Origin: Felixounavirus LF82P5
Strand: one strand, 5' to 3'
Sequence record: OZ035800.1
Length of the DNA stretch: 64,000 nt
In this document: piece after piece, positions 52,146-63,585 of the stretch
How positions within the stretch are numbered: the stretch's first letter is position 1
Layout of the letters: every line of letters starts with the position of its first letter
Position numbers and translations under genes: made by a program
Notes under the pieces: generated by a model
Told to the model about the DNA's origin: nothing
Databases searched by the model: none
Seen by the model: only the letters and a program-made list of their open reading frames with translations

Positions 52146-52534
52146 TAACGAATCACCTGTGAGACTTGAATTGCTTCAGTTACTGACAAGTCACCTACTT
52201 TCTCTTCTTTGATAAAAGTGAAGGTGAGTTCAACAGGCTCTTGCTCTTCTTGCTCAACTGGAATGCCATTAAGCTCATCGCGGATTGATTGAGTTGTCCA
52301 GTCTTCTCCACCATCTGGATAATGGATGGCGTAACGAGGAAACTCCATATCATACCAGCCAAATACAGGACAACCATCTTCATCATCTCGCATTCTGCGA
52401 AGGGTGCTACCTGAGCCTGTAAAGCGAAGACTAATATTCCCATTACACTCAAAAATCACTGCGTCGGCAAGTCCAGCATCTTCTCGACCATCATGTCCAA
52501 AAGTGTCAACTTTTACTTGAATCTCTTTATTCAT
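52145..52534 (-). CDS. hypothetical protein
   Basis: 129-aa acidic ORF. Confidence 0.45.
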   Translation of the reverse strand: MNKEIQVKVDTFGHDGREDAGLADAVIFECNGNISLRFTGSGSTLRRMRDDEDGCPVFGWYDMEFPRYAIHYPDGGEDWTTQSIRDELNGIPVEQEEQEPVELTFTFIKEEKVGDLSVTEAIQVSQVIR

Positions 52535-52925
52535 AAAAACCTCTCTCTGCTTGTTCGATTTTTGCTCTTAAAACTTCACAACGTTCTATGTGATATCTGG
52601 CCTCATGCTCATGTGTTGCCAAAGTCCTTTCAAGAACTGTTTTATAGTAACTCGCAAGCTGCTCTCTTGTCAAGGGGTGTTCTGAAATAATATCAAGGCC
52701 ACTTTCCCCTAGAGTATTAAACTGCCCGTGTTCATTTACATGGTAAGTCTCAAACTTGAACAGGCCGTTGTTAGCAGATTCAATAGGTGATAGTTCAGCC
52801 AACTCAACAGTGAACATTGTGTGTACCCTATCACCAATTGTAACAATGTTACTCCCAATGATTCTCACCATTGAGCCATTGCGAGTGTACTTAAAAGCCC
52901 CAACATCATCAGCCCAAAGTTTCAT
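52527..52925 (-). CDS. hypothetical protein
   Basis: 132-aa ORF. Confidence 0.45.
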   Translation of the reverse strand: MKLWADDVGAFKYTRNGSMVRIIGSNIVTIGDRVHTMFTVELAELSPIESANNGLFKFETYHVNEHGQFNTLGESGLDIISEHPLTREQLASYYKTVLERTLATHEHEARYHIERCEVLRAKIEQAERGFYE

Positions 52926-52943
52926 AGTTTTCTCCTTAGAAAA

Positions 52944-52967
52944 TAAAAAAGGCTCCCGAAGGAGCCT
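52944..52967 (-). terminator. rho-independent terminator (minus strand)
   Basis: On the minus strand AGGCTCC-UUCG-GGAGCCU hairpin followed by a U6 run, downstream of the endolysin stop. Confidence 0.6.
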
Positions 52968-52976
52968 ATGAAGATA

Positions 52977-53441
52977 TTACTTTGGGTATACACTGTCAAG
53001 ATAAATGTCAGCTTCCATTCTACGTCTGTTTTTCAGGCCGTTTGAAGTGACCTTCTTACCTTTGACTGTAACCTTGTTCCACCACTGCATAGCTTCTGCA
53101 CAACCGACCTTATTACCAGCATTGTGGCGCTTGATAAATGTGGAATCCTGCATAGCTGTGATACCGATGTTGTATGTTTCACTTACAAGTGCATCAAACT
53201 CGTTCTGAGAAGTTGGAACCTTGATGGCTTTATTCACTGCTGCAACGAATTTTTCAACATCTGCAAGAAGATACTGTTCAGCTTGTTCAGCAGTAATTTT
53301 CATACCCATCTTAACAGGTTTTCCGTCAATACGGATTGTTCCATAACCGATTGTTGGGATTCCGGCAGAGTCTTCGTAAGCCTCTAACTTCAGACCTTCA
53401 AAGAACTTAATAGCCTCTAAACCTTTTCTTGAGAGTTGCAT
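52977..53441 (-). CDS. endolysin, T4-lysozyme-like (GH24)
   Basis: 154 aa; GLKLEAYEDSAGIPTIGYG contains the Glu-8 aa-Asp-5 aa-Thr catalytic arrangement of T4 lysozyme. Confidence 0.7.
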   Translation of the reverse strand: MQLSRKGLEAIKFFEGLKLEAYEDSAGIPTIGYGTIRIDGKPVKMGMKITAEQAEQYLLADVEKFVAAVNKAIKVPTSQNEFDALVSETYNIGITAMQDSTFIKRHNAGNKVGCAEAMQWWNKVTVKGKKVTSNGLKNRRRMEADIYLDSVYPK

Positions 53442-54574
53442 TATGCCTCCCCTGCTGGATTAACTGTAACTGTTGCTGCGTTAGATGTTACAGAGCCACC
53501 TGCACCAGTAACTACACAGGTGTAGCTTCCTGAATCAGCAGCGGTTGCACCTTCTTTGGTGTAAGTTGCAGTAGTTGCATCGAGGATGTCTTCCTCACCT
53601 TTCTTCCACTGGTAACTTGTTGCACCTGTTGCCACAACATTCAGCGTTAAGGTATCACCTTCAGTGATTCCTTGATTGGTTGGCTGTTGAGTGATTACTG
53701 GAAGTGCGTTCACAGTTACTACAGCAGCATTAGATTCCACTGCACCACCTGCACCTGTTACAACGCAAGTGTATGAACCTGCATCTGCTGGCAGAGCACC
53801 AGACTTGCTATAGGTGGCATCTGTAGCCGAAGGAATGTCAGAGCCATCTTTCTTCCACTGATAACCTGTTGCACCTGTTGCAGTCACTTCCAAGTTGATG
53901 TTTCCACCCTCATTGATAGTCTGGCTAGAAGGTTGTTGTGTAATCACAGGTAGTGCGTTCACAGTCACTGTTGCTGCATCTGAGGTAACACTTGTTCCAC
54001 CCTCTCCAGATACAACACAAGTATAAGAACCAGCATCAGAAGGTGCTACAGACTGTTTTGTGTAGGTTGCAGATGTGGCGCTAGTGATATCCTCACCATC
54101 CTTTTTCCATTGATATCCAGTGGCATTAGTTGCAATAATGCTTAGGGTAAGTGTACCACCTTCATTTACTGTTTGATTGGTTGGTTGCTGAGTAATTGAT
54201 GGTGGCTTGATAGCGTCCTTCAACTTAGCATTCAACATTGAGAATGGTTTAACTCTTGCCAGCCATTCACAATAAACTGTATCAACGTCTTTACCATTGA
54301 TAATTGCATATTGTAAGTCCATGAAGAAGTCAGAAGTTCTCATTTGAGCACCAACGCTATAAAGCAACTCATCACTAAATGGAACTTTGTAGTCTGGTTT
54401 GTAGTCAAACTTCTCAACTTCTGCGATATCAGCTTCAGGCCAATATGAGCTATAGGTGAGTGGTAAAATAGCCTCTTGATATGTTCTAAAATCATATCTC
54501 TTACCAGCCTTTACATTTGCAATGAAGCCCTTCACAAACTCTTTGAAGTCTGGGTAAGTCTTTGCTTTAATCAT
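53441..54574 (-). CDS. protein with three tandem Ig-like domains
   Basis: N-terminal roughly 130-aa domain plus three repeats of about 80 aa (ITQQP...YQWKKDG...AGSYTCVV...VTVN). Confidence 0.55.
   Translation of the reverse strand: MIKAKTYPDFKEFVKGFIANVKAGKRYDFRTYQEAILPLTYSSYWPEADIAEVEKFDYKPDYKVPFSDELLYSVGAQMRTSDFFMDLQYAIINGKDVDTVYCEWLARVKPFSMLNAKLKDAIKPPSITQQPTNQTVNEGGTLTLSIIATNATGYQWKKDGEDITSATSATYTKQSVAPSDAGSYTCVVSGEGGTSVTSDAATVTVNALPVITQQPSSQTINEGGNINLEVTATGATGYQWKKDGSDIPSATDATYSKSGALPADAGSYTCVVTGAGGAVESNAAVVTVNALPVITQQPTNQGITEGDTLTLNVVATGATSYQWKKGEEDILDATTATYTKEGATAADSGSYTCVVTGAGGSVTSNAATVTVNPAGEA
53460..54200. repeat. tandem DNA repeats (three units of about 250 bp) encoding the Ig-like domains
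   Basis: Repeated blocks on the plus strand such as CACCTGCACCAGTAACTACACAGGTGTAGCTTCCTG / CACCTGCACCTGTTACAACGCAAGTGTATGAACCTG. Confidence 0.5.
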
Positions 54575-54942
54575 TTCTTTTTAGCCTCTAAATGTGCGTT
54601 TAGTCTAAAATAACCTTTGTGATGCGGAGATACATCACCAACAACAATACCTTTAACCTTATAACCTTTACCAATTACATACTGGATATCCATAAGGAAT
54701 CTTCCAAGACCAACAATATGGAACATTGGATATAATAGATTCTCAGAATCTGGAATATTGATTTCAGGTTTGTAGGTACGCTGTTCGCTTGTTGGTGTAA
54801 TATCTTCTTCAGGCCACTTACTGAGTCTCCATGTCAAAGGTGTTGGGATAACATCATTAAGGTTGTACCTTTCACCATTTTGCACGGAATTGATATAGGA
54901 TTGTAGGAAGCAATAAAAGTCTTTTGCACTCTTAGCTTTCAT
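54571..54942 (-). CDS. paralogue of the N-terminal domain of 53441..54574
   Basis: MKAKSAKDFYCFLQSYINSVQNGERY... aligns with MIKAKTYPDFKEFVKGFIANVKAGKRY...; shared ...FLMDIQYVI motif. Confidence 0.45.
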   Translation of the reverse strand: MKAKSAKDFYCFLQSYINSVQNGERYNLNDVIPTPLTWRLSKWPEEDITPTSEQRTYKPEINIPDSENLLYPMFHIVGLGRFLMDIQYVIGKGYKVKGIVVGDVSPHHKGYFRLNAHLEAKKK

Positions 54943-54989
54943 TAAATATCCTTATAAATAGTTAAAGGGGCATCAGCCCCTATTCACAC

Positions 54990-55580
54990 TTAAGCTTTGG
55001 TCTTAAGTAGGTTCTTAAGTTTTTTAAGATTCATACTCTCATCAAACTTAAAACCAAATCCATTGACATAATCAATGAACTCGGATTTCTTACTAAGTGA
55101 CAATGCGTAACTCATATCAAAGTTCTTACTTGTTTCTGCGTCTGGACTAGAGTTCACATCAAATGAAATTTCTGTAGGCTCTTGCTTACTTTTTCTCATA
55201 TTATCAACCAACAAACATGTATAGTTTGCTGGATAGAAGTTTACACTACCATCAACGTAGCTGTACTTATTATTATGGATAAGGTTGGAAAATACCTTAA
55301 GAAATGTTTCTGAGTCGTGGCAAACAAGTTTGAATTGGCTGCTCTCTCCAAGCGCAACTAATGAGTACGGACTTTCACTATCAAAGTCATAATTTGGATT
55401 CGATGCCGTCACTGTTACACGCATCAAGTTATTAGCAATAGTCTTCTGTTTAAAAGAATTTTGAACATAGTGAAGACCTCTATCACACTGATTGACTAGC
55501 TCTTTAAGTAGGTCATTTGCATATGGTGAATTAATTGATACAGAGCCATCACTATTGTAATTAAAACTTACTGTTAACAT
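54990..55580 (-). CDS. hypothetical protein
   Basis: 196-aa ORF. Confidence 0.45.
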   Translation of the reverse strand: MLTVSFNYNSDGSVSINSPYANDLLKELVNQCDRGLHYVQNSFKQKTIANNLMRVTVTASNPNYDFDSESPYSLVALGESSQFKLVCHDSETFLKVFSNLIHNNKYSYVDGSVNFYPANYTCLLVDNMRKSKQEPTEISFDVNSSPDAETSKNFDMSYALSLSKKSEFIDYVNGFGFKFDESMNLKKLKNLLKTKA

Positions 55581-55807
55581 TTTTCAGTTCTCCTGCGATT
55601 TATAATTTTGCTGCAATAGAGAAACGAAGTAAACTCACTGGAAGAAACCATCAAGTGTTGTTCACTAGATTGAGCCATTGCCCTGAAATACATTCCAGTC
55701 AAAGCATCATAGTGACTATTCTTTCCAATTGAGGTTATATAGCCATGACTCTTTGCAGTTTGATATAAATCTATAATATCTGCGATTTCTAATTGGGAAC
55801 TACACAT
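55574..55807 (-). CDS. hypothetical protein
   Basis: 77-aa ORF. Confidence 0.35.
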   Translation of the reverse strand: MCSSQLEIADIIDLYQTAKSHGYITSIGKNSHYDALTGMYFRAMAQSSEQHLMVSSSEFTSFLYCSKIINRRRTEKC

Positions 55808-55971
55808 AGATAATCCTCTTGTCTTCTGTAATTTTGAAAGAACAGGTACAGACCAATTTCAGAGGATGAATAGTAGATTAACTCTACCCTTTTTGATTCC
55901 TTACAGTGATTGGTATTCTTACCTTTCTTCGGTTTATTTGATTTTCTCATTAAGTCTCCTTTGTAGAACAA
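55789..55971 (-). CDS. hypothetical small basic protein
   Basis: 60-aa ORF, first gene of the minus-strand block. Confidence 0.3.
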   Translation of the reverse strand: MFYKGDLMRKSNKPKKGKNTNHCKESKRVELIYYSSSEIGLYLFFQNYRRQEDYLCVVPN

Positions 55972-56048
55972 GGCAGACCTACAGCTTTAAGTAAGATGGT
56001 ACAGTAATCCATACAACAAGTCAAGAACTATTGCAAGTTAAAAAAGTT

Positions 56049-56073
56049 GTTGACAAAGTACTTGACAAGGTGT
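56049..56073 (+). promoter_or_regulatory. conserved tandem-TTGACA module (second copy)
   Basis: GTTGACAAAGTACTTGACAAGGTGT; downstream shares ACTTAAAAGGTT with the 12659 copy; TATAAATA at about 56079. Confidence 0.45.
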
Positions 56074-56199
56074 AGGCTTATAAATACTTAGAAGATAACT
56101 TAAAAGGTTCCTCTAAAAAGGCTATTTAAACAGATATCTTTCTGGATATCTATCTTTTATCTTAAAAGCCTTTTAAGAGGTCTTATAAGAGGCATACCA

Positions 56200-56571
56200 A
56201 TGAAAAACAGAACAAACAAAGGCCAGTTTAAAAAAGGCCAGTCTGGAAACCCATCTGGAAGACCGAAAGGCTCTCGTAACAAAAGCTCACTCGTAAAAGC
56301 TCAACTGACCATTGATAATTCTGCTGAGTTTGCTGCAAAGTTGTTTGAGGCAATTGTTACAAGGGACGCTGCTAAGCTTGCAGAGTTCGGTTTAAACACA
56401 GATGACGTAACCATCAAGAGCATGATTGAGGTCGGTAAAACTATCTTTACTCACTCAGCAGGTGAGATGAAGGCACTTGCAGCAGACACTAAGAAGACTC
56501 CTGATAATGGTGGTCAACAACAGACAGATAACAAACCAACGTTCTCTGCTGTAGCGACTCTCAAAAAATAA
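56200..56571 (+). CDS. hypothetical protein with GNPSGRPKG motif
   Basis: 123 aa; N-terminal basic KGQFKKGQSGNPSGRPKGSRNK. Confidence 0.45.
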   Translation: MKNRTNKGQFKKGQSGNPSGRPKGSRNKSSLVKAQLTIDNSAEFAAKLFEAIVTRDAAKLAEFGLNTDDVTIKSMIEVGKTIFTHSAGEMKALAADTKKTPDNGGQQQTDNKPTFSAVATLKK

Positions 56572-56652
56572 TTTTAAAAGGTGTTGACAGACTCTACAAA
56601 GTTGCTCTAAAGTCTGTCACATCAAACAACAGATGAGAGAAGAGAGTAAAAT

Positions 56653-58068
56653 ATGAGCGAGTTATTTAAACATGCGCACCTTCATGCAGGTCGAACTGAA
56701 AATGGTGCTGTAAACCATACTTCATCAATGTCTGCTCTGGTAGACTTCTACAAAGCCGCTGGCTCAAGCCGTAGCAATGTAGAAATCTTACCAGACCTGT
56801 TCTACAAAGCTTTGCGTGAGGATGTTGATGTTGCAGTTCGTATTTTACTGCATATGCGAGATGTACGAGAAGGTATGGGTGAGCGTAAAGCTTTCCGAAC
56901 TGTTTTACTTCAAGCGATTGAAGATAAAGTTTTAGAGCCTACACAGGTTCTTCGCATTATGGACAAGATTGCAGAACTTGGTCGTTTTGATGACTTCAAA
57001 ATCTTCGTAGGTACTCGTTTCGAGACAGATGCCTTCAAACATTTAGAAGCAGCATTACTAGACCCTGCAACAGCAGGTTTAGCAGCTAAGTGGTTGCCAC
57101 GAGTAAAACCACGCCACAAACAGTTTGTAAAACGTTTCTGTAAGTTTGCAAACTTAAGTGAGAAGGAGTATCGCACACTGTTATCTGCACTGTCTGATAC
57201 GGTTGAGCAAAAAATCTCTGCGAATGAGTTTGGTAAGATTGACTACAGCAAGATTCCTTCACTCGCTGCTGCACGTTACCAAAAACTCTTTAACCGTAAA
57301 GATGGGGAACGTTACAAAGCTTACATCGAGTCACTCTCAAAAGGTGAGTCTAAGATTAACGCTGGTGCTGTTTACCCATACGATGTGATTAAATCTATTA
57401 AGTATGGTAATGCAGATGTTGCTAATGAGCAGTGGAAAGCACTTCCAAACTGGATGGCAGAAGGTGAAAACATCTTGTGTATGACTGATGTTTCAAGCTC
57501 AATGTCTTGGGTGAATCTTGGCTCAATTACTGCCCTTGATATTGGTGTATCACTTGCCTTATATGTAGCAGAACGCAATACAGGTTGCTTTAAAGATGAG
57601 TTAATGGTCTATTCAACAAACCCTCATTTCATTGAACTGAGTGGTGATTTACGAAACCGTCATCGTCAGGTAATGCGTCATGTTGAATATGGTTCAACTA
57701 ACTTACAAGCAGCTTTTGACCGTATTCTTGAGATAGGTAAGAGAAACAACTTGACTCAGAAAGATATGCCAAGTAAGCTTATCATCTTCTCCGATATGGA
57801 GTTCAATCAGGTTGATGGAGCTAACGGTCGTACAAACTTTGAAGCAATTCAGAGTAAGTACAAAAAAGCTGGATATGAGATGCCACAACTAGTATTCTGG
57901 TACTTAGCAAACCGTAATGGTACTTGCGAAGTGTCTGTTAAGGATAATGGTGTAGCAATGGTATCAGGGTTCTCTCCAGCCACTTTAAAAGCTCTGCTTG
58001 GTGGTGAGAAGTTTGACCCAATCAGCGTAATGCTCAAAGCAGTAATGATTGACCGTTACATCTGGTAA
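56653..58068 (+). CDS. vWA-domain protein with N-terminal helical domain (possibly Ro60/TROVE-like)
   Basis: 471 aa; MIDAS-type DxSxS (MTDVSSSMS) with downstream Thr and LIIFSDMEF; helical N-terminal half; directly upstream of the tRNA array. Confidence 0.45.
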   Translation: MSELFKHAHLHAGRTENGAVNHTSSMSALVDFYKAAGSSRSNVEILPDLFYKALREDVDVAVRILLHMRDVREGMGERKAFRTVLLQAIEDKVLEPTQVLRIMDKIAELGRFDDFKIFVGTRFETDAFKHLEAALLDPATAGLAAKWLPRVKPRHKQFVKRFCKFANLSEKEYRTLLSALSDTVEQKISANEFGKIDYSKIPSLAAARYQKLFNRKDGERYKAYIESLSKGESKINAGAVYPYDVIKSIKYGNADVANEQWKALPNWMAEGENILCMTDVSSSMSWVNLGSITALDIGVSLALYVAERNTGCFKDELMVYSTNPHFIELSGDLRNRHRQVMRHVEYGSTNLQAAFDRILEIGKRNNLTQKDMPSKLIIFSDMEFNQVDGANGRTNFEAIQSKYKKAGYEMPQLVFWYLANRNGTCEVSVKDNGVAMVSGFSPATLKALLGGEKFDPISVMLKAVMIDRYIW

Positions 58069-58086
58069 AAAGTTTTAAAAAGGGTA

Positions 58087-58115
58087 TTGACAATGTGTTT
58101 GATACCCTTTAATAT
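58087..58115 (+). promoter_or_regulatory. sigma70-like promoter for the tRNA array
   Basis: TTGACA-17 nt-TAATAT; the -35 is embedded in the inverted repeat AGGGTAT...ATACCCT. Confidence 0.55.
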
Positions 58116-58233
58116 GTTCTACATAGAAACGAAATGAGAGCTTTTCTAAGATACTGAAAAATATTTTAAAAAAGTTCTTGACAACCACTAAAAAATAATG
58201 TTAAAGTGGTTACATAGAGTTTGAAAAGTTTAT

Positions 58234-58310
58234 CTCTGTTTAGCTCAGCTTGGTAGAGCGTTCCGTTTGGGGCGGTAAGGCCGGAGGTTCAAGTCCTCCA
58301 ACAGAGACCA
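58234..58310 (+). tRNA. tRNA-Pro (anticodon TGG)
   Basis: Hand-folded cloverleaf: acceptor CTCTGTT/AACAGAG, D-stem GCTC/GAGC, anticodon loop TTTGGGG, T-arm GGAGG-TTCAAGT-CCTCC, encoded CCA. Confidence 0.6.
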
Positions 58311-58317
58311 AATTAAT

Positions 58318-58395
58318 GTTCCAGTAGACAAAATGGTAAAGTCACCACTCTTTCAAAGTGGATATTTGAGGGTTCAAATCCCTTCTGGAACGCCA
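58318..58395 (+). tRNA. tRNA-Glu (anticodon TTC)
   Basis: Acceptor GTTCCAG/CTGGAAC, anticodon stem CCACT/AGTGG, loop CTTTCAA, T-loop TTCAAAT, CCA. Confidence 0.65.
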
Positions 58396-58402
58396 GTTTT
58401 GA

Positions 58403-58475
58403 CAGAAGACCAATTGCAGCAAACTTAATCTTATTCATCTGACACGAAATCGGACAAAGAAGAGATTTGGTCTGG
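58403..58475 (+). ncRNA. stem-closed structured element E1 (candidate small RNA)
   Basis: 5' CAGAAGACCAATTGCAGCAA ... 3' TTTGGTCTGG; 7-bp closing stem AGACCAA/TTGGTCT. Confidence 0.35.
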
Positions 58476-58486
58476 TCATTAAGAAT

Positions 58487-58563
58487 TGCGGGTATAGAGA
58501 AAGGGCGTCTCACATGTCTCATTAGCATGGTATCGGCAGGTTCGACTCCTGCACCCGCCTCCA
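58487..58563 (+). tRNA. tRNA-Met (anticodon CAT)
   Basis: Anticodon stem CATGT/GCATG, loop CTCATTA, T-arm GCAGG-TTCGACT-CCTGC; U1-C72 mismatch in the acceptor stem. Confidence 0.55.
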
Positions 58564-58569
58564 ATTTTG

Positions 58570-58629
58570 CAGAAGACCGTATTCAGCAACAAAATACTTT
58601 TTGCGGATAAAAGAAAAAACACGGTCTGG
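58570..58629 (+). ncRNA. stem-closed structured element E2
   Basis: 5' CAGAAGACCGTATTCAGCAA ... 3' CACGGTCTGG; closing stem AGACCG/CGGTCT. Confidence 0.35.
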
Positions 58630-58640
58630 CAATGTATTAA

Positions 58641-58717
58641 GGTTAGGAAGCACATAAGGTATGTGCGGTCGCCTGTTAAGCGAATGGCACAGGGTTCGAA
58701 TCCCTGACTAACCGCCA
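58641..58717 (+). tRNA. tRNA-Asn (anticodon GTT)
   Basis: Acceptor GGTTAGG/ACTAACC, D-stem GCAC/GTGC, loop CTGTTAA, T-arm CAGGG-TTCGAAT-CCCTG, CCA. Confidence 0.6.
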
Positions 58718-58726
58718 AATTTAAAT

Positions 58727-58814
58727 GTGTCGTTATCCCGTAGATGGTAGCGGTGGGGACTGTAAATCCCTTGTCATTGAGACTCGGTAGGTTCGACTCC
58801 TACACGGCACACCA
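58727..58814 (+). tRNA. tRNA-Tyr (anticodon GTA), long variable arm
   Basis: Anticodon stem GGGGA/TCCCT, loop CTGTAAA, 14-nt variable arm, T-arm GTAGG-TTCGACT-CCTAC, CCA. Confidence 0.6.
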
Positions 58815-58820
58815 AATAAA

Positions 58821-58898
58821 GGTTATGTAGTTTAATCTGGTTAAAATACTCCCCTGTCACGGGAGATGATGAGGGTTCAAATCCCTTCGTAACCGCCA
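58821..58898 (+). tRNA. tRNA-Asp (anticodon GTC)
   Basis: Anticodon stem CTCCC/GGGAG, loop CTGTCAC, T-arm GAGGG-TTCAAAT-CCCTT, CCA. Confidence 0.65.
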
Positions 58899-58985
58899 AA
58901 TTATAATAAGTATTTCAAGATGATGTTTTGAGATGGCTATTTAGCCCCTCCCTTAAAGAGTTCTTACGAGTATTCTTTAAAGGAG

Positions 58986-59062
58986 CAGAAGACCAAATTC
59001 AGCAAGTACGTATGATATTTTCAAGCCAATTTAATTTTGAAAAAATTTAAAACTTGGTCTGG
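58986..59062 (+). ncRNA. stem-closed structured element E3
   Basis: 5' CAGAAGACCAAATTCAGCAA ... 3' ACTTGGTCTGG; 7-bp closing stem. Confidence 0.35.
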
Positions 59063-59075
59063 CTCAACAAATTTA

Positions 59076-59207
59076 CAGAAGACCGTTTACAGCAAAACTT
59101 AAACAATCTATTTCTCCGGTAAAGAAAAGGCGAAGGTTCGATTCCTTCACTCGGCAGATGTCGAGTTGGTGTAATGGTAGCACTTAAGATGATAAACAAC
59201 GGTCTGG
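59076..59207 (+). ncRNA. stem-closed element E4 with embedded permuted tRNA-like module (candidate Y-RNA-like RNA)
   Basis: 8-bp closing stem AGACCGTT/AACGGTCT; inner helix CTTAA/TTAAG; T-arm GAAGG-TTCGATT-CCTTC; acceptor-like helix ACTCGGC-AGAT-GTCGAGT capped by a 4-nt loop; D-arm GTGT-AATGGTA-GCAC. Confidence 0.4.
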
Positions 59208-59356
59208 TAATTATCTTTGTAGATAAGTTATTAAGCTTACCTGTGAGTATGCGACCACAAAGGGTGAAAGGGTAAATTCTAGATTTAAACCCAACAAGGC
59301 ACATCGCTACAGACCTTAAGCAAGTCTGGGTAGCTTATCTACAAAGATAATTTAAT

Positions 59357-59432
59357 GGAAGTGTAGCAGAATGGTGATGCGGCAGACTTTTAATCTGACA
59401 GGCGATGGGTTCGAATCCCTCCACTTCTACCA
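59357..59432 (+). tRNA. tRNA-Lys (anticodon TTT)
   Basis: Acceptor GGAAGTG/CACTTCT, anticodon stem CAGA/TCTG, loop CTTTTAA, weak T-stem, CCA. Confidence 0.5.
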
Positions 59433-59436
59433 ATAT

Positions 59437-59513
59437 GGTTCAGTCGCAGATAAGGTAATGCAGGGGTCTCATAAGCCCTATGAATGTGGGTTCGATTCCC
59501 ATCTGAACCTCCA
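59437..59513 (+). tRNA. tRNA-Met or tRNA-Ile2 (anticodon CAT)
   Basis: Acceptor GGTTCAG/CTGAACC, loop CTCATAA, T-arm GTGGG-TTCGATT-CCCAT, CCA. Confidence 0.55.
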
Positions 59514-59514
59514 A

Positions 59515-59590
59515 GCTGGTATAGTTAAGAAGGTTATAACACTCCCCTGATAAGGGAACATCGGTGGTTCGATTCCACCTACCAGTACCA
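59515..59590 (+). tRNA. tRNA-Ile (anticodon GAT)
   Basis: D-stem GTTA/TAAC, loop CTGATAA, T-arm GGTGG-TTCGATT-CCACC, CCA. Confidence 0.6.
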
Positions 59591-59605
59591 ATTTCAATAA
59601 AGTTG

Positions 59606-59634
59606 TTGACATTGAGATGTGACCACTTTATAGT
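59606..59634 (+). promoter_or_regulatory. internal sigma70-like promoter within the tRNA array
   Basis: TTGACA-17 nt-TATAGT. Confidence 0.5.
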
Positions 59635-59837
59635 AACCTTAGTTTTCGTTGCGTAGCGTCTATTTTGCAAATTTAAAATAAATGCAAACGACAATGTTTT
59701 TCTGGCAGTAGCTTGATAGGCTAAACACCAGTGAGGTCTTCCAATCCCTCATCAAAGAATTTGGCGTACTCGCCCACGGTATGATTAATAAGGTGGGCAT
59801 CTTTAAGGGCTTTCTAAGAGAGTCTTTAAAGATTAAT

Positions 59838-59914
59838 GCACCCTTAGTTCAATTGGATAGAGCAACGGTCTTCTAAATCGTTAGTTACAGGTTCGAATCC
59901 TGTAGGGTGTGCCA
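59838..59914 (+). tRNA. tRNA-Arg (anticodon TCT)
   Basis: Acceptor GCACCCT/AGGGTGT, D-stem GTTC/GAGC, loop CTTCTAA, T-arm ACAGG-TTCGAAT-CCTGT, CCA. Confidence 0.65.
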
Positions 59915-60062
59915 AATAGTTAGCAGATTGCTTAGACGACCTTATCGGGTCTCCGTGTAAGGAGGTGGTCTGTATCTCATGTTTTCCAGAACATGTAAAT
60001 AATCTGAGAAGGGGCTTTACAGTGTTGCGAAAATACGGTAAGCTTCGAATTATAGTTTTAAT

Positions 60063-60133
60063 AGGGGTGAGCTATGGCAGCAATAGAGTCTCCAAAATTC
60101 TTGATTAGAGTTCGAATCTCTACACCCCTGCCA
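60063..60133 (+). tRNA. tRNA-like sequence with degenerate anticodon arm (possible pseudogene)
   Basis: Good acceptor AGGGGTG/CACCCCT, D-stem CTAT/ATAG and T-arm TAGAG-TTCGAAT-CTCTA, but no pairable anticodon stem and only about 68 nt. Confidence 0.3.
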
Positions 60134-60147
60134 GAACAGGTGCTTGT

Positions 60148-60552
60148 ATGAAACTTTGTAGAAAATGTTCTCAAGAAAAGCCTTTAAGCTGCTTTCATAA
60201 AAGAGGTAATGGCTATCAGTCTGCTTGCAAAGATTGTAAAGCTAAGTACTCAGCAAAGAGATACAAAGAAGACCCTACTTATAAAGCAAAAAGAAAAGTT
60301 AGGGCGAAATATGACAAAAAGAGGAACAGAGAGTTCCTTAGTAGATATAAAAAGTTTTGCAAATGCAGAATATGTGGCGAATCTGAGCCAGTAGCTTTGG
60401 ATTTTCATCACTTAGACCCTAAAGAGAAAGATTTTGCTCCAAGCAATCTTAAGACTTACTCTAGAGGCACTATTAAGCGTGAAGTCCGTAAGTGTGTTGT
60501 GCTTTGTTCAAACTGTCATAGGAAAGTTCATGCAGGACTGTTAAGTATTTAA
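60148..60552 (+). CDS. HNH endonuclease embedded in the tRNA array
   Basis: 134 aa; Cys-rich zinc-binding N-terminus and HNH core DFHHLDPKEKDF...CSNCHRKVH. Confidence 0.7.
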   Translation: MKLCRKCSQEKPLSCFHKRGNGYQSACKDCKAKYSAKRYKEDPTYKAKRKVRAKYDKKRNREFLSRYKKFCKCRICGESEPVALDFHHLDPKEKDFAPSNLKTYSRGTIKREVRKCVVLCSNCHRKVHAGLLSI

Positions 60553-60565
60553 CAGTCTTATTAGG

Positions 60566-60655
60566 GGTAGGTAGCGGCTAATGGCAGCCAAACAGTCTTG
60601 AAAACTGTTGCCACTGTAGAGATACGGTGAGGGTTCGACTCCTTTACTTACCGCC
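60566..60655 (+). tRNA. tRNA-Ser (anticodon TGA), long variable arm
   Basis: Anticodon stem ACAGT/ACTGT, loop CTTGAAA, roughly 20-nt variable arm, T-arm GAGGG-TTCGACT-CCTTT. Confidence 0.6.
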
Positions 60656-60811
60656 TAATAAGATTTAAAGCCAAGCTTCATTCGGATGTTGCTTTGGTAT
60701 CCCTCGTGTATTGTCGTACACGCACAGTAAAGCACCTAGTAGGTGTCACGGAGAAGAGATAATATCAAGCTCTCCAAAGGTTCTAGTCACCGGATTAAAC
60801 AAGACTATGCA

Positions 60812-60832
60812 AAGACCAAATTAGGTCTTTTT
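60812..60832 (+). terminator. hairpin plus T run inside the tRNA array
   Basis: AGACC-AAATTA-GGTCT followed by TTTTT. Confidence 0.4.
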
Positions 60833-60911
60833 AGAGGGCTTCTAAGGTTATTACAGCTTGTTGTGGAACCTTGTTGCTTAGGTTCTTAGAAGTTCTCTAA
60901 AAAGATTTAAT

Positions 60912-60988
60912 GCACCTATAGCCCAATTGGTAGAGGCAGCAGACTTAGAATCTGCTCAGTGTGAGTTCGAATCTCTCTAGGTGTACCA
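60912..60988 (+). tRNA. tRNA with Leu-type anticodon TAG, short variable arm
   Basis: Acceptor GCACCTA/TAGGTGT, Leu-like D-arm GCC-CAATTGGTAGA-GGC, 6-bp anticodon stem AGCAGA/TCTGCT, loop CTTAGAA, 5-nt variable region. Confidence 0.45.
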
Positions 60989-60995
60989 AATTAAT

Positions 60996-61071
60996 GCAGG
61001 TGTAGCAAAATGGTTATGCGGCTGACTCTTAATCAGTAAGACGATGGGTTCAATTCCCTCCACCTGTACCA
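60996..61071 (+). tRNA. tRNA-Lys (anticodon CTT)
   Basis: Acceptor GCAGGTG/CACCTGT, loop CTCTTAA, same weak T-arm as the other Lys tRNA, CCA. Confidence 0.5.
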
Positions 61072-61077
61072 AACATT

Positions 61078-61153
61078 GGGGTCATAGTTTATATGGTTAA
61101 AATTCGAGTTTTGCAAACTTGGGAACTGAGTTCAATTCTCAGTGACTCCACCA
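61078..61153 (+). tRNA. tRNA-Ala (anticodon TGC)
   Basis: Anticodon stem CGAGT/ACTTG, loop TTTGCAA, T-arm CTGAG-TTCAATT-CTCAG, CCA. Confidence 0.55.
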
Positions 61154-61159
61154 ATTAGT

Positions 61160-61234
61160 GCATCCATAGTTTAAACGGGAAAATTACAGTCTTCCAAACT
61201 GAGGTTGAGGGTTCGATTCCCTCTGGATGCTCCA
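61160..61234 (+). tRNA. tRNA-Gly (anticodon TCC)
   Basis: Acceptor GCATCCA/TGGATGC, loop CTTCCAA, T-arm GAGGG-TTCGATT-CCCTC, CCA. Confidence 0.6.
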
Positions 61235-61241
61235 AATTAAT

Positions 61242-61317
61242 GCTCCTATCGTATAATTGGCTATTACGGTTGCCTTGTAAGCAACTTATCAGGGTTCGAA
61301 TCCTTGTGGGAGCACCA
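61242..61317 (+). tRNA. tRNA-Thr (anticodon TGT)
   Basis: Anticodon stem GTTGC/GCAAC, loop CTTGTAA, T-arm CAGGG-TTCGAAT-CCTTG, CCA. Confidence 0.65.
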
Positions 61318-61321
61318 ATTC

Positions 61322-61408
61322 AGAGGTCAAGTGAAAGACCGCTTTGAGTCAACTGAAGACCGTAACAAATCCCACGGAGTTGAGTTAGCGGCACAACTTC
61401 AGACCTCT
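61322..61408 (+). ncRNA. stem-closed structured element E5
   Basis: Perfect 7-bp closing stem AGAGGTC/GACCTCT enclosing about 73 nt with two AGACCG motifs and internal hairpins; no T-loop. Confidence 0.3.
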
Positions 61409-61413
61409 TTCAT

Positions 61414-61488
61414 ACTCGCTTAGTTTATATGGTAAAACATCACCCTTACAAGATGAAGAAAAAGGTTCAAGTCCTTTAGTGAGTACCA
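61414..61488 (+). tRNA. tRNA-Val (anticodon TAC)
   Basis: D-stem GTTT/AAAC, loop CTTACAA, T-arm AAAGG-TTCAAGT-CCTTT, CCA. Confidence 0.55.
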
Positions 61489-61489
61489 T

Positions 61490-61567
61490 GTTCCAGTATC
61501 CCAATTGGCAGAGGATGCAAGCTCAAACCTTGTACTAGTGACGGTTCGAATCCGTCTTGGAACACCA
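61490..61567 (+). tRNA. tRNA with Leu-type anticodon CAA, short variable arm
   Basis: Leu-like D-arm TCC-CAATTGGCAGA-GGA, anticodon stem GCAAG/CTTGT, loop CTCAAAC, T-arm GACGG-TTCGAAT-CCGTC, CCA. Confidence 0.45.
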
Positions 61568-61572
61568 ATTTT

Positions 61573-61648
61573 GCAGGATTAGTTCAAATGGATAGAGCAA
61601 CAGTCTACGAAGCTGTTAATAGGGGTTCGAATCCCTTATCCTGCGCCA
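61573..61648 (+). tRNA. tRNA-Arg (anticodon ACG)
   Basis: Acceptor GCAGGAT/ATCCTGC, loop CTACGAA, T-arm AGGGG-TTCGAAT-CCCTT, CCA. Confidence 0.6.
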
Positions 61649-61667
61649 ATTTAAAGAGGCTATTTAG

Positions 61668-62225
61668 ATGAGATATTTGAAGTATGCTTCATGGATTTTC
61701 TTAGCTTTGTTAGAGCCATTTGCAGCAATCTTAGCAGTTATCTTAGCACCTTTCGTAGTTCCATTCTACAGTGAGAAGAAAGGACATCTCCCTTTTGGAT
61801 TCAGATGGATGGAGACATATGACAACCAAATTGATGGTGATAAAGGTCATGTCGAACGATGGGCTAAGATTAGAAAGATTGGTAAGCTTGGTGTCTATAT
61901 GCAGAGAGTTGGTTGGCTCTGGAGAAACAAAGCTTATAACTTCTCTTACCATGTGTTAGGAAGAGATGTAAAAGATGTTACTAAGTGGAAAGGCAATATC
62001 AATGTAAGTTCTAACCCTGAAGATAATCAGACAGGTTATCTCCTAATGTGGAACAGTAATGCTTGGGGATTATTCGCTTTTGTACCATCAATTAAAATCT
62101 TTGGTAAACAATTCTACTGGAGAATTTATGTTGGGTGGAAACTTAAAAGTGTTGTCCCAGAAGAAAGGGCATTCTCAAGGGAAAGAGTTATGTTGGCATT
62201 CTTTATTCATCCACTAAGAAAATAA
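61668..62225 (+). CDS. membrane protein of unknown function embedded in the tRNA array
   Basis: 185 aa with AGAGG Shine-Dalgarno; hydrophobic N-terminus (WIFLALLEPFAAILAVILAPFVVPF). Confidence 0.5.
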   Translation: MRYLKYASWIFLALLEPFAAILAVILAPFVVPFYSEKKGHLPFGFRWMETYDNQIDGDKGHVERWAKIRKIGKLGVYMQRVGWLWRNKAYNFSYHVLGRDVKDVTKWKGNINVSSNPEDNQTGYLLMWNSNAWGLFAFVPSIKIFGKQFYWRIYVGWKLKSVVPEERAFSRERVMLAFFIHPLRK

Positions 62226-62233
62226 AGATTTAA

Positions 62234-62309
62234 AGGGGATTAGTTTACAAGGTTAAAACCTCGGTCTTTGAAATCGAAGAAGTTGGTTCAATTCCAACAT
62301 CCCCCGCCA
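62234..62309 (+). tRNA. tRNA-Gln (anticodon TTG)
   Basis: D-stem GTTT/AAAC, anticodon stem TCGGT/ATCGA, loop CTTTGAA, T-arm GTTGG-TTCAATT-CCAAC, CCA. Confidence 0.55.
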
Positions 62310-62311
62310 AT

Positions 62312-62390
62312 GCTCCATTACTCCAATTGGCAGAGAGGCCAGACTTAAAATCTGTGTTATGTATCGGTTCGAATCCGATATGGAGTACCA
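62312..62390 (+). tRNA. tRNA with Leu-type anticodon TAA, short variable arm
   Basis: Leu-like D-arm CTC-CAATTGGCAGA-GAG, anticodon stem CAGA/TCTG, loop CTTAAAA, T-arm ATCGG-TTCGAAT-CCGAT, CCA. Confidence 0.45.
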
Positions 62391-62395
62391 AATTT

Positions 62396-62471
62396 AGCGG
62401 TATAGCATAACTGGCAATGCAACAGTCTCTGAAGCTGTCTTATTAAGGTTCAAATCCTTATGCCGCTGCCA
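62396..62471 (+). tRNA. tRNA-Gln (anticodon CTG)
   Basis: D-stem GCAT/ATGC, anticodon stem ACAGT/GCTGT, loop CTCTGAA, T-arm TAAGG-TTCAAAT-CCTTA, CCA. Confidence 0.55.
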
Positions 62472-62502
62472 CTTCTAAGGGTTCTTACGAGAGTCCTTAA
62501 AT

Positions 62503-62578
62503 GTGGCCTTATCATAAATGGTAATGACCCATGCTGTGAACATGGTCTATACGGGTTCAAATCCCGTAGGTCACCCCA
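62503..62578 (+). tRNA. tRNA-His (anticodon GTG)
   Basis: Anticodon stem CCATG/CATGG, loop CTGTGAA, T-arm ACGGG-TTCAAAT-CCCGT, CCA. Confidence 0.6.
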
Positions 62579-62583
62579 ATTTA

Positions 62584-62658
62584 TAGTCCAAGTAGCTTAT
62601 ATGGTTAAAGCGCGTGTCTGAAAAACATGAGAAGAGGGTTCAAATCCCACTGGACTAC
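62584..62658 (+). tRNA. tRNA-Phe (anticodon GAA)
   Basis: Perfect acceptor TAGTCCA/TGGACTA, loop CTGAAAA, T-loop TTCAAAT; D-arm register uncertain. Confidence 0.45.
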
Positions 62659-62676
62659 CAATTTCAAAGGTGCTTA

Positions 62677-63411
62677 ATGAAAGAGATGACAGAACAAGGT
62701 AAGGAGATTTTTAATCTCTTAAAAACCGGTAGAGGGTTTTCTAATCCCCTTATTACTGGTGCAGCAGTTCTCGGTGGAACCGTAGCTGCCTCTACATCAC
62801 TTGTAAGCTCTATTAGCTCTGTATCAGACCCTACAGTAAAGGATAAGCTTGTTGCTGCTGGACTTACAACAGTTCTGCTTAACAGCTTTACCACGAGTCT
62901 GACAAGCACTACATCAACTACCAAAACACTAACAGATTACGGTCAAAAGTCCATTGATGAGTTTTCATCACGTATGCAGGTAGCAAAAGGTTACTCTAAT
63001 GTTATGGGTGCAGCAGGTGAACAAGTTGGCTGTACACCATTTAGTGGTATTATGGGTGTTGCTACAGAGTATGGTCAAAAAGCTATTGACACGATTAACA
63101 GTACACTAGATAGTGTTAACGATGTGTTAAGTGACTTACAAGATGCTATTGATAAGGGTCTTGATACTGTTTCTGATTTAGCTAACCAAGCTGTTAGTAA
63201 GATTAATGAAGGTATCTCAAAGATTACAGCTTATGCAGATGAAGTTGTGCAGATGATTGAAGAAGAAGCTGCCCTTATTGCAGAGTACCTTAAAACGAAT
63301 ATCAATGGGTTCTTAGCAGGTATCTTACCAGACTGGTTTGATGATGCCTGTAAAACTGGTGTAATTGACACTATTGCAACACCAGAAATGAAGAGCGCAT
63401 TACAGAAATAA
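62677..63411 (+). CDS. Ser/Thr-rich protein of unknown function
   Basis: Track ORF begins with GTG inside tRNA-Phe; start moved to ATG 62677 with AAAGG Shine-Dalgarno. Confidence 0.45.
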   Translation: MKEMTEQGKEIFNLLKTGRGFSNPLITGAAVLGGTVAASTSLVSSISSVSDPTVKDKLVAAGLTTVLLNSFTTSLTSTTSTTKTLTDYGQKSIDEFSSRMQVAKGYSNVMGAAGEQVGCTPFSGIMGVATEYGQKAIDTINSTLDSVNDVLSDLQDAIDKGLDTVSDLANQAVSKINEGISKITAYADEVVQMIEEEAALIAEYLKTNINGFLAGILPDWFDDACKTGVIDTIATPEMKSALQK

Positions 63412-63412
63412 T

Positions 63413-63505
63413 GGAAGATTAACCCTAAAAGGTAAGGGAGCAGTTTGCTAAACTGCCAGTAGCTGAGAAATCGGTGTACCAGTTCAAGTCTGGTATCTTC
63501 CTCCA
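63413..63505 (+). tRNA. tRNA-Ser (anticodon GCT), long variable arm
   Basis: Perfect acceptor GGAAGAT/ATCTTCC, anticodon stem GCAGT/ACTGC, loop TTGCTAA, 20-nt variable arm, T-arm ACCAG-TTCAAGT-CTGGT, CCA. Confidence 0.65.
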
Positions 63506-63509
63506 ATTT

Positions 63510-63585
63510 GAATCCGTGACAGAAATGGATATGTACCTGTCTGCAAAACAGGTTTATAAGGGTTCGAGTCCCTTCGGATTCTCCA
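63510..63585 (+). tRNA. tRNA-Cys (anticodon GCA)
   Basis: Perfect acceptor GAATCCG/CGGATTC, anticodon stem CCTGT/ACAGG, loop CTGCAAA, T-arm AAGGG-TTCGAGT-CCCTT, CCA. Confidence 0.65.

Follow-up and report, generated by a model that had tools for sequence, protein, structure and literature searches.

The Ig-repeat gene at 53441..54574 and its upstream neighbor very probably encode, respectively, a Hoc-like capsid decoration protein (Hex-Dec) and an ancient duplicate of its anchor domain alone, the latter expressed late, translationally coupled to Hex-Dec, and under selection yet dispensable. The pair lies within the window, the whole 64,000-nt stretch of Felixounavirus LF82P5 DNA (OZ035800.1) that was analyzed. 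The Ig-repeat protein itself has been known for Felix O1-type phages since 2025, and its identification here has corrective value, as annotations commonly mistake Hex-Dec for a tail protein. Interest also attaches to the conserved, coexpressed anchor copy and to the decoration by Hex-Dec of only one of two hexamer classes. The features of the locus are as follows.

52950..52967, minus strand: intrinsic terminator hairpin past the endolysin gene (7-bp stem, 5 GC pairs, T-run), closing the three-gene unit
52977..53441, minus strand: endolysin, T4-lysozyme-like, GH24, 154 aa (PF00959, E = 6.6e-41; phrog_7)
53441..54574, minus strand: Hex-Dec gene, 377 aa, anchor domain plus three Ig domains (ORF call; PDB and PHROG matches)
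53441..53455, minus strand: 4-aa tail and stop codon of Hex-Dec
53456..53704, minus strand: Ig unit 3, aa 291–373 (83 aa), terminal, module D (96% identity to module D)
53705..53953, minus strand: Ig unit 2, aa 208–290 (83 aa), module B whose 3′ end is of module-C type
53954..54205, minus strand: Ig unit 1, aa 124–207 (84 aa), module A, I-set/Ig_3 type (Pfam)
54206..54574, minus strand: capsid-binding domain (CapBD), Hex-Dec aa 1–123, aligned residue by residue to solved chains
54571..54942, minus strand: CapBD-only paralog, 123 aa, 14.3 kDa, pI 9.1, phrog_4463
54967..54980, minus strand: GC-rich hairpin GGGGC-TGAT-GCCCC in the gap that separates the paralog from the upstream gene (from the sequence)

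As the initial annotation had proposed, the two back-to-back ORFs are real, both on the minus strand, and the longer encodes an N-terminal domain followed by three Ig domains (123 aa, then units of 84, 83, and 83 aa by Pfam). The product of the shorter is paralogous to this N-terminal domain (BLASTP, 37% identity over 101 aa, E = 5e-17). The proposed location beside the endolysin and outside the structural module was likewise borne out, with the PF00959 gene immediately downstream and no gene of known structural function detected by Pfam and PHROG searches among those flanking the locus. The TGA stop codon of the paralog overlaps the Hex-Dec ATG (ATGA, 4 nt), and the Hex-Dec stop codon shares one base with the endolysin ATG (TAATG). 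A programmed frameshift joining the paralog to Hex-Dec was considered and rejected, since the two genes meet in an ordinary ATGA stop-start overlap that has a Shine-Dalgarno sequence of its own. The wV8 record annotates a terminator hairpin after the endolysin and also a rho-independent terminator at the site homologous to the 54967..54980 hairpin; the latter was not called by a terminator consensus scan of the window because its T-run is imperfect. A sigma-70 promoter scan returned sites no more numerous than in shuffled sequence, with none directly upstream of the paralog, and an Rfam scan of 52400..58400 matched tRNAs only, therefore indicating no RNA element in the locus. The paralog–Hex-Dec–endolysin order and its overlapping junctions are common to the window, wV8, Felix O1, Moogle, and Sf14. 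Among 26 IMG/VR loci whose Hex-Dec is complete, 25 have the same order and junctions (the exception, L024, carries a paralog pseudogene), as does a divergent metagenomic lineage, so that the three-gene synteny extends down to 48% identity.

Hex-Dec of the window matched the solved chains of Bas63 (PDB 9NCF chain S; phmmer E = 5.2e-278) and Sf14 (PDB 9C2D chain S; phmmer E = 4.8e-167), as well as phrog_3995 (E = 1e-208), and its orthologs are Bas63 Hex-Dec, Sf14 gp20, Felix O1 gp36, and wV8 gp41. Residues 1–123 align end to end with the Bas63 anchor domain at about 98% identity. Both I-set and Big_2 had been suggested as domain families for the repeats; Pfam recovered I-set (E = 3e-26), together with Ig_3 (E = 1.3e-33) and Ig_2 (E = 4e-25), each over three stretches, and gave no Big_2 match in Hex-Dec. 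The three Ig domains are acidic (pI 4.1). In the Bas63 cryo-EM structure, Hex-Dec was modeled at the centers of hexamers on facet edges, with flexible Ig domains. In Sf14, one gp20 per asymmetric unit is present in the capsid map, and gp20 was detected in virions by mass spectrometry (MS). By cryo-EM, the orthologs occupy the 60 pentamer-adjacent hexamers of a T=9 capsid. Felix O1 gp36 was identified in purified virions by MS with 14 peptides and 44% coverage. The initial annotation had set the protein apart from Hoc-type capsid decoration proteins, holding that it would instead count as a conventional decoration protein if found in abundance in virions; because orthologs (Felix O1 gp36 and Sf14 gp20) have been detected in just this way, and in capsid maps, that distinction is refuted by its own standard.

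In Sf14 gp20, Arg79 and Arg107 are reported to make salt bridges to the major capsid protein (MCP) at Asp221 (PMC11821841), and both arginines are kept at the same positions in Hex-Dec of the window; the MCP gene, sought in order to check Asp221, was not found in the 64,000-nt window. According to the Sf14 authors, a displaced Asp221 at the three-fold hexamers misses Arg79 and Arg107, such that Hex-Dec is excluded there (PMC11821841). Judging from these orthologs, the CapBD of Hex-Dec would plug, as a monomer, the center of each of the 60 pentamer-adjacent hexamers, probably held by salt bridges from Arg79 and Arg107 to Asp221 as seen in the orthologs and consistent with the conserved arginines, and the three Ig domains would project outward as a flexible fiber. 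By analogy with T4 Hoc, we infer that this fiber may adhere weakly to cells, mucus, or other surfaces, or may govern particle aggregation. Hex-Dec is predicted to be dispensable in the laboratory from the “Not Fit” result for its SUSP1 ortholog agp125 in a CRISPRi-ART screen; this call, like the same call for the SUSP1 paralog agp126, is a weak negative because lysozyme also scored “Not Fit.”

The anchor-only paralog corresponds to Felix O1 ORF37, wV8 gp42, Sf14 gp21, and SUSP1 agp126. It matched the solved Bas63 chain (9ncf_S) over residues 2–117 (phmmer E = 1.2e-11). An AlphaFold2 model of the paralog was poor (pLDDT 59, from a 17-sequence alignment), and Foldseek with this low-confidence model returned 9c2d_S and 9ncf_S at the top (prob 0.99 and 0.97, TM about 0.48). 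In alignment A2, the position of Arg79 is Gly in all 16 of 16 paralog sequences and in P0055, and that of Arg107 is H, Q, or occasionally R. The paralog is basic and retains most residues that are invariant in the wider family, features with which it may bind stably to the acidic hexamer center. Transcription of both Felix O1 ORF36 and ORF37 peaks at 60 min (late). In the favored reading, the paralog arose long ago by duplication of just the anchor domain, and it would be made late from a short transcription unit with Hex-Dec and be translationally coupled to it.

Published virion analyses, with MS negatives read from the lists of the 2010 and 2015 studies, do not report the paralog. It is not in the MS-derived Felix O1 virion protein list, which includes proteins of 9.7–13 kDa and low-copy tail parts; going by the main text of the VpaE1 paper, it is not among the 22 virion proteins of that phage; and it is neither listed nor modeled in the published reports on Sf14 and Bas63 virions. 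A literature search found no paper discussing the paralog, both cryo-EM papers being silent on it, and the HIDEN-SEQ and transposon-mutagenesis preprints include no Ounavirinae phage. The paralog is tentatively regarded as a nonvirion late accessory factor, acting transiently on hexamer centers or in Hex-Dec loading rather than as a stable decoration.

A second, Ig-less cap is an unlikely alternative role, in which the paralog would stably fill the 20 true three-fold-axis hexamers closed to Hex-Dec and so leave all 80 hexamers plugged. Homology to the anchor domain along the whole length of the paralog, late expression coupled to that of Hex-Dec, and a pI of 9.1 against an acidic pore are each compatible with such a cap, and the altered positions are precisely those of Arg79 and Arg107, whose Asp221 partners shift at the three-fold hexamers. 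However, both cryo-EM studies report the other hexamers to be without density, neither the Felix O1 virion proteome nor, by inference, the 22-protein VpaE1 proteome contains the paralog, and it has been lost in a thriving, diversified lineage of at least 18 isolates, that of Z31, SP116, and REP5-12. Similarly doubtful is the proposal that the paralog is an unrecognized hexamer binder that either caps the 20 three-fold hexamers or sits transiently at hexamer centers during assembly, setting the placement of the Ig fibers; if true, each member of the paralog pair would serve one of the two classes of hexamer in a T=9 capsid.

Decay of the paralog as a functionless remnant of a tandem duplication is considerably less probable still. 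Its apparent dispensability (pseudogenization in 19 deposited genomes, all with one common junction, and the “Not Fit” call in SUSP1) and its nondetection in virions would be expected of such a remnant, as would a median dN of 0.081, about four times the 0.020 of the Hex-Dec anchor domain, with dN/dS about three times higher. In opposition, the paralog exhibits a dN/dS of 0.12–0.14 with dS up to about 1.2 and, judged by these substitution rates, is under purifying selection. The gene is intact in 232 of 252 genomes, and many positions are invariant solely within the paralog family. In Felixounavirus, Mooglevirus, and Suspvirus, as in an uncultured lineage at 48% identity, its length holds steady at 122–124 aa and its start-stop coupling to Hex-Dec is kept.

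Comparison with known systems places the locus closest to its published relatives. Bas63 (Escherichia phage JohannRWettstein) belongs to the same genus and carries the same gene, with I-set Ig units, an upstream paralog, and a Hex-Dec gene that adjoins the endolysin and lies over 10 kb away from the structural module. Bas63 Hex-Dec has 460 aa and four Ig units (A-B-C-D), whereas the 377-aa form of the window has three (A-B/C-D), lacking one 83-aa unit through an apparent in-register deletion. Sf14 gp20 (Mooglevirus; PDB 9C2D/9C3A chain S) resembles Hex-Dec of the window in its three Ig units and in Arg79 and Arg107, and gp21-gp20-gp19 reproduce the order of paralog, Hex-Dec, and endolysin, but Sf14 is of another genus, and gp20 has more diverged Ig units. 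The type-species orthologs are Felix O1 gp36 (“tail protein,” 31.6 kDa) and ORF37; gp36 (294 aa) is abundant in virions and has only two Ig units, A and a B/D chimera, as compared to three in the window. The reading of the Ig protein as a tail or “major tail” protein, a label carried by most GenBank records, PHROG 3995, and the 2010 Felix O1 paper (for gp36) and echoed by PHROG matches to “major tail protein” families across the Ig region, merits almost no credence, being already refuted by two independent cryo-EM structures in which capsid hexamers hold the N-terminal domain (PDB 9NCF and 9C2D), explicitly called wrong by the Bas63 authors, and dependent on “tail” PHROG matches confined to promiscuous Ig domains.

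The Hoc-like reading of Hex-Dec is reminiscent of T4 Hoc in its mode of action: Hoc also sits as a monomer at hexamer centers, bears an acidic Ig-like fiber, is nonessential, and varies in Ig number among relatives. In contrast, the capsid-binding domain of Hoc lies at the C terminus, is smaller, and differs in topology, sequence similarity being minimal (per the Bas63 authors). The Hoc order (Ig domains N-terminal, anchor C-terminal) is reversed in Hex-Dec, whose anchor is N-terminal. Hoc binds all hexamers, and Hex-Dec only the 60 pentamer-adjacent ones. PHROG Hoc-like matches (phrog_2973, 4069, and 3945) cover residues 121–290 only, within the Ig region. Given the reversed domain order and Ig-only matches, Hex-Dec was not assigned to the T4 Hoc family, although it is functionally Hoc-like. 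The Ig domain of T5 pb10 (PDB 5LXK and 8ZVI) is detectably similar to Hex-Dec (E = 9e-12), but pb10 carries just one Ig domain, its anchor domain is unrelated, and the alignment is limited to the Ig region. Kolesnikvirus proteins (Erwinia phage phiEa21-4 gp38-like), annotated as conserved structural proteins, are distant members of the anchor-domain family and display one Big_2 domain in place of the I-set repeats; no anchor-only paralog was found in Kolesnikvirus genomes, each giving a single match. The anchor domain in nature carries one to four I-set domains, a Big_2 domain, or nothing, and because it is a natural modular display scaffold, the locus could be of interest for engineering Felix O1-type phages for display or therapy.

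The Ig domains had been described in the initial annotation as near-identical tandem DNA repeats of about 250 bp, prone to expansion and contraction. Near-identity was not observed: the units are 62–66% identical in DNA and 67–69% in protein, with third-codon-position identity of 35–42% (close to saturation) and a longest common in-register run of 12–15 nt, and Tandem Repeats Finder (minimum score 30) reported no array of about 250 bp. The repeats are old, diverged modules rather than unstable near-identical DNA. Changes in repeat number, the other part of the claim, did emerge from the proposed comparison of isolates, with 1, 2, 3, or 4 Ig units among 32 related loci; such variation among relatives has already been published in the Bas63 and Sf14 papers. 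Across relatives, the units are orthologous modules A-B-C-D, of which the window carries A-B(/C)-D. Ig unit 1 of the window is 96% identical in nucleotide sequence to module A of the four-Ig form, and Ig unit 2 is 88% identical to B, with informative sites of B type giving way to C type near nt 205. This B/C switch, as read from the informative sites, marks the probable in-register junction where a unit present in the four-Ig form has been lost. Changes in unit number would appear to arise from infrequent unequal recombination, in register, between old units that are roughly 65% identical, events predicted to leave chimeric junction units. Forms with a single Ig unit are chimeras of A and D, joined at three distinct breakpoints; the Felix O1 arrangement is A-(B/D), and that of one further locus is A-B-(C/D).

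The Ig-repeat gene, referred to here as Hex-Dec, is the middle cistron of a three-gene trio that also encodes an anchor-only paralogue of its N-terminal domain and an endolysin:

54967..54980, minus strand: GC hairpin ahead of the trio, at a site whose homologue in phage wV8 carries a terminator annotation
54571..54942, minus strand: paralogue ORF, 123 aa
53441..54574, minus strand: Hex-Dec ORF, 377 aa
52977..53441, minus strand: endolysin ORF, T4-lysozyme type, 154 aa (PF00959, E=6.6e-41)
52950..52967, minus strand: hairpin downstream of the endolysin, a clear intrinsic terminator after the trio

ORF calls for the paralogue and Hex-Dec reproduced the coordinates of the initial annotation exactly. 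A separate Shine-Dalgarno sequence precedes each cistron; the paralogue TGA stop overlaps the Hex-Dec ATG (ATGA), and the endolysin ATG overlaps the Hex-Dec TAA by one base (TAATG). Over its 2.7 kb the locus matches Felixounavirus LF82P5 (OZ035761.1) at 100% identity and numerous Felix O1-like Escherichia, Salmonella, and Shigella phages at 95–97%, and by sequence the window is assigned to Felixounavirus. The trio's immediate neighbours, 54990..55580 (minus strand; phrog_4034, 196 aa) and 52527..52925 (minus strand; phrog_4266, 132 aa), show conservation throughout Ounavirinae and contain no Pfam domain.

Among solved structures, Hex-Dec matched PDB 9NCF chain S (“Immunoglobulin-like domain protein,” 460 aa; E=5e-278) and 9C2D/9C3A chain S (“tail protein,” 372 aa; E=5e-167). 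These chains come from icosahedral reconstructions of the capsids of two phages, Bas63 of Escherichia (Felixounavirus) and Sf14 of Shigella (Mooglevirus), respectively. The name Hex-Dec comes from the Bas63 study, in which flexible Ig-like domains follow the capsid-binding anchor domain; the protein is functionally like T4 Hoc but has a distinct topology and reversed domain order (PMC12609058). The Sf14 orthologue, gp20, is present at one copy per asymmetric unit, and therefore 60 per T=9 capsid, and was detected by virion mass spectrometry (PMC11821841). Its Arg79 and Arg107, both found in the window Hex-Dec, form salt bridges to Asp221 of the major capsid protein; these Asp residues are displaced in the 20 true three-fold hexamers, which is the authors' proposed reason why gp20 does not bind there (PMC11821841). 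The Felix O1 orthologue, gp36 (31.6 kDa), was likewise identified in purified virions in 2010 (14 peptides, 44% coverage). The initial annotation had set this protein apart from Hoc-type decoration proteins and named detection as an abundant virion protein as the contrary observation; virion detection of the orthologues therefore supplies that observation, and the claim is refuted. The Ig-repeat gene encodes a conventional Hoc-like decoration protein of the hexamers, already known from Felix O1-type phages; its location beside the endolysin and variable Ig number were both already published.

In Hex-Dec, an N-terminal domain of 123 aa is followed by three Ig units (84, 83, and 83 aa). Pfam placed these units in the eukaryote-like families Ig_3 (1.3e-33), I-set (3e-26), and Ig_2 (4e-25), with three stretches for each family, and returned no Big_2 match. 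The domain plan and paralogue of the initial annotation are borne out by ORF calls, Pfam, and BLASTP, but its description of the Ig units as near-identical ~250-bp DNA repeats is not. Tandem Repeats Finder reported no ~250-bp array at the Ig units, and a separate repeat search recovered only a 33-nt family (64–76% identity, 249-nt spacing). Codon-aligned units share 62–66% DNA and 67–69% protein identity, with third-position identity of 35–42% and in-register identical runs of at most 15 nt; they are old duplications with saturated synonymous sites.

Unit number nevertheless varies, as both cryo-EM papers previously reported (1–4 units; PMC12609058, PMC11821841). Among 32 loci compared (28 from IMG/VR plus several from GenBank, some phages being counted twice), Hex-Dec lengths of 210, 294, 377, or 461 aa correspond to one, two, three, or four Ig units (4, 13, 12, and 2 loci, plus one truncated case). 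The predicted expansion and contraction is thus borne out across the family, but its stated cause, near-identity of the units, does not apply. Across loci the units are orthologous modules, A-B-C-D in the four-unit form. The window Hex-Dec is A-B-D, and its middle unit carries B-type informative sites up to ~45 nt from its end and C-type sites thereafter, a switch that marks an in-register deletion junction. The Felix O1 orthologue is A-(B/D chimera), one three-unit phage is A-B-(C/D chimera), and three one-unit phages carry A/D chimeras, each with its own breakpoint. The copy number therefore changes repeatedly through in-register unequal recombination involving whole units, despite only ~65% identity between them. 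Purifying selection acts on Ig unit 1 (dN/dS about 0.10–0.12), so the units are functional rather than mere spacers. In Shigella phage Z31 (MN655999.1, 3498..4070) the lone remaining unit carries an internal deletion and in-frame stop (...ITQQPIKQ*), predicting an Ig-less 134-aa anchor domain, and the paralogue of this genome is a pseudogene as well; the shortened Hex-Dec may be either a real, naturally occurring “bald” variant or an error in sequencing.

The gene upstream of Hex-Dec is the conserved anchor-only paralogue. It has no Pfam match, but BLASTP aligned it to the Hex-Dec N-terminal domain (37% identity over 101 aa, E=5e-17) and the corresponding families, phrog_4463 and phrog_3995 (Ig protein), cross-match at 1e-15 to 1e-16, indicating a real paralogue, as initially annotated. 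Its AlphaFold2 model was poor (pLDDT 59), and Foldseek with this poor model ranked 9c2d_S and 9ncf_S first. An anchor-domain HMM scan of 1.84 billion representative proteins returned only 12 clusters, so the domain is narrowly distributed. It is also modular, occurring with one to four I-set domains (Felixounavirus, Mooglevirus, Suspvirus), with a low-complexity tail, with nothing (the paralogue), or with a single Big_2 domain rather than I-set repeats in Kolesnikvirus of the Erwinia phiEa21-4 type (annotated “conserved structural protein”), where no anchor-only paralogue was detected.

Of 252 matching phage records, 232 carry an intact paralogue, and its family is tight (122–124 aa). The order paralogue, Hex-Dec, endolysin and the overlapping junctions are kept in Felixounavirus, Mooglevirus, and Suspvirus, and in an uncultured 87-kb lineage whose paralogue is only 48% identical. 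Purifying selection is evident (dN/dS 0.12–0.14; Hex-Dec anchor 0.044), with a median dN about fourfold that of the Hex-Dec anchor (0.081 versus 0.020). In 19 deposited genomes from E. coli, Salmonella, and Shigella hosts, including Z31, SP116, mio, REP5-12, and Tf, it is a pseudogene lacking its start codon, with frameshifts and a ~223-nt internal deletion; the common junction at 92–100% identity suggests a single old loss, after which the lineage diversified, and shows the gene to be dispensable there. CRISPRi-ART screening of SUSP1 scored both agp125 (the Hex-Dec orthologue) and agp126 (the paralogue) as “Not Fit,” weak negatives because lysozyme received that score too.

By RT-PCR in Felix O1, ORF36 (Hex-Dec) and ORF37 (paralogue) peak late, at 60 min, as do portal and tail-fibre genes. 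Flanking ORF35 (endolysin) and ORF38 are maximal at 25 min. ORF35–38 (homologous to window 52977..55580) lie on one strand with only hairpins between. The difference in timing is a hint that a late promoter or antitermination control, so far unrecognised, lies just ahead of the paralogue, where a search for sigma-70-like sites gave none. The paralogue is missing from the list of Felix O1 virion proteins, which reaches down to 9.7 kDa, and we infer that it lies outside the 22 VpaE1 virion proteins; both absences speak against a stable virion role. Our preferred reading, held tentatively, is that the paralogue arose from the anchor domain and serves as a late accessory factor that is not part of the virion. 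A rival of greater interest, in which the protein caps the 20 three-fold hexamers, would fit the specific loss of both arginines (Gly at the R79 position in all paralogue sequences compared; H or Q, and occasionally R, at R107) and the basic charge (pI 9.1 versus 6.3 for the Hex-Dec anchor), but is disfavoured by virion proteomics and by the capsid maps, no density being reported on the remaining Bas63 hexamers (PMC12609058), and we consider it unlikely. A functionless remnant is highly improbable because of the selection signal. Bas63 and Sf14 each encode the paralogue (Sf14 gp21, directly upstream of gp20), which is absent from both structural papers; no discussion of it was found in the literature.

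GU169904.1, a 147-kb record labelled as Staphylococcus phage SA1, carries a paralogue and Hex-Dec locus of the Felix O1 type at 99% identity, suggesting a chimeric or contaminated assembly. Divergent from the Hex-Dec block, a DUF5681 protein (56200..56571, plus strand) and a 471-aa DUF2828/DUF7788/vWA protein (56653..58068, plus strand; labelled “RNA-binding protein” in PHROGs) are encoded directly upstream of a tRNA array. Scanning with Rfam detected tRNAs alone, with neither a Y-RNA-like element nor any other structured RNA beside these genes. The dense array (58234..63585, plus strand) begins ~170 nt past the DUF2828/DUF7788 gene, comprises 27 tRNA genes covering most amino acids, and is the counterpart of the tRNA cluster known in Felix O1 and wV8.
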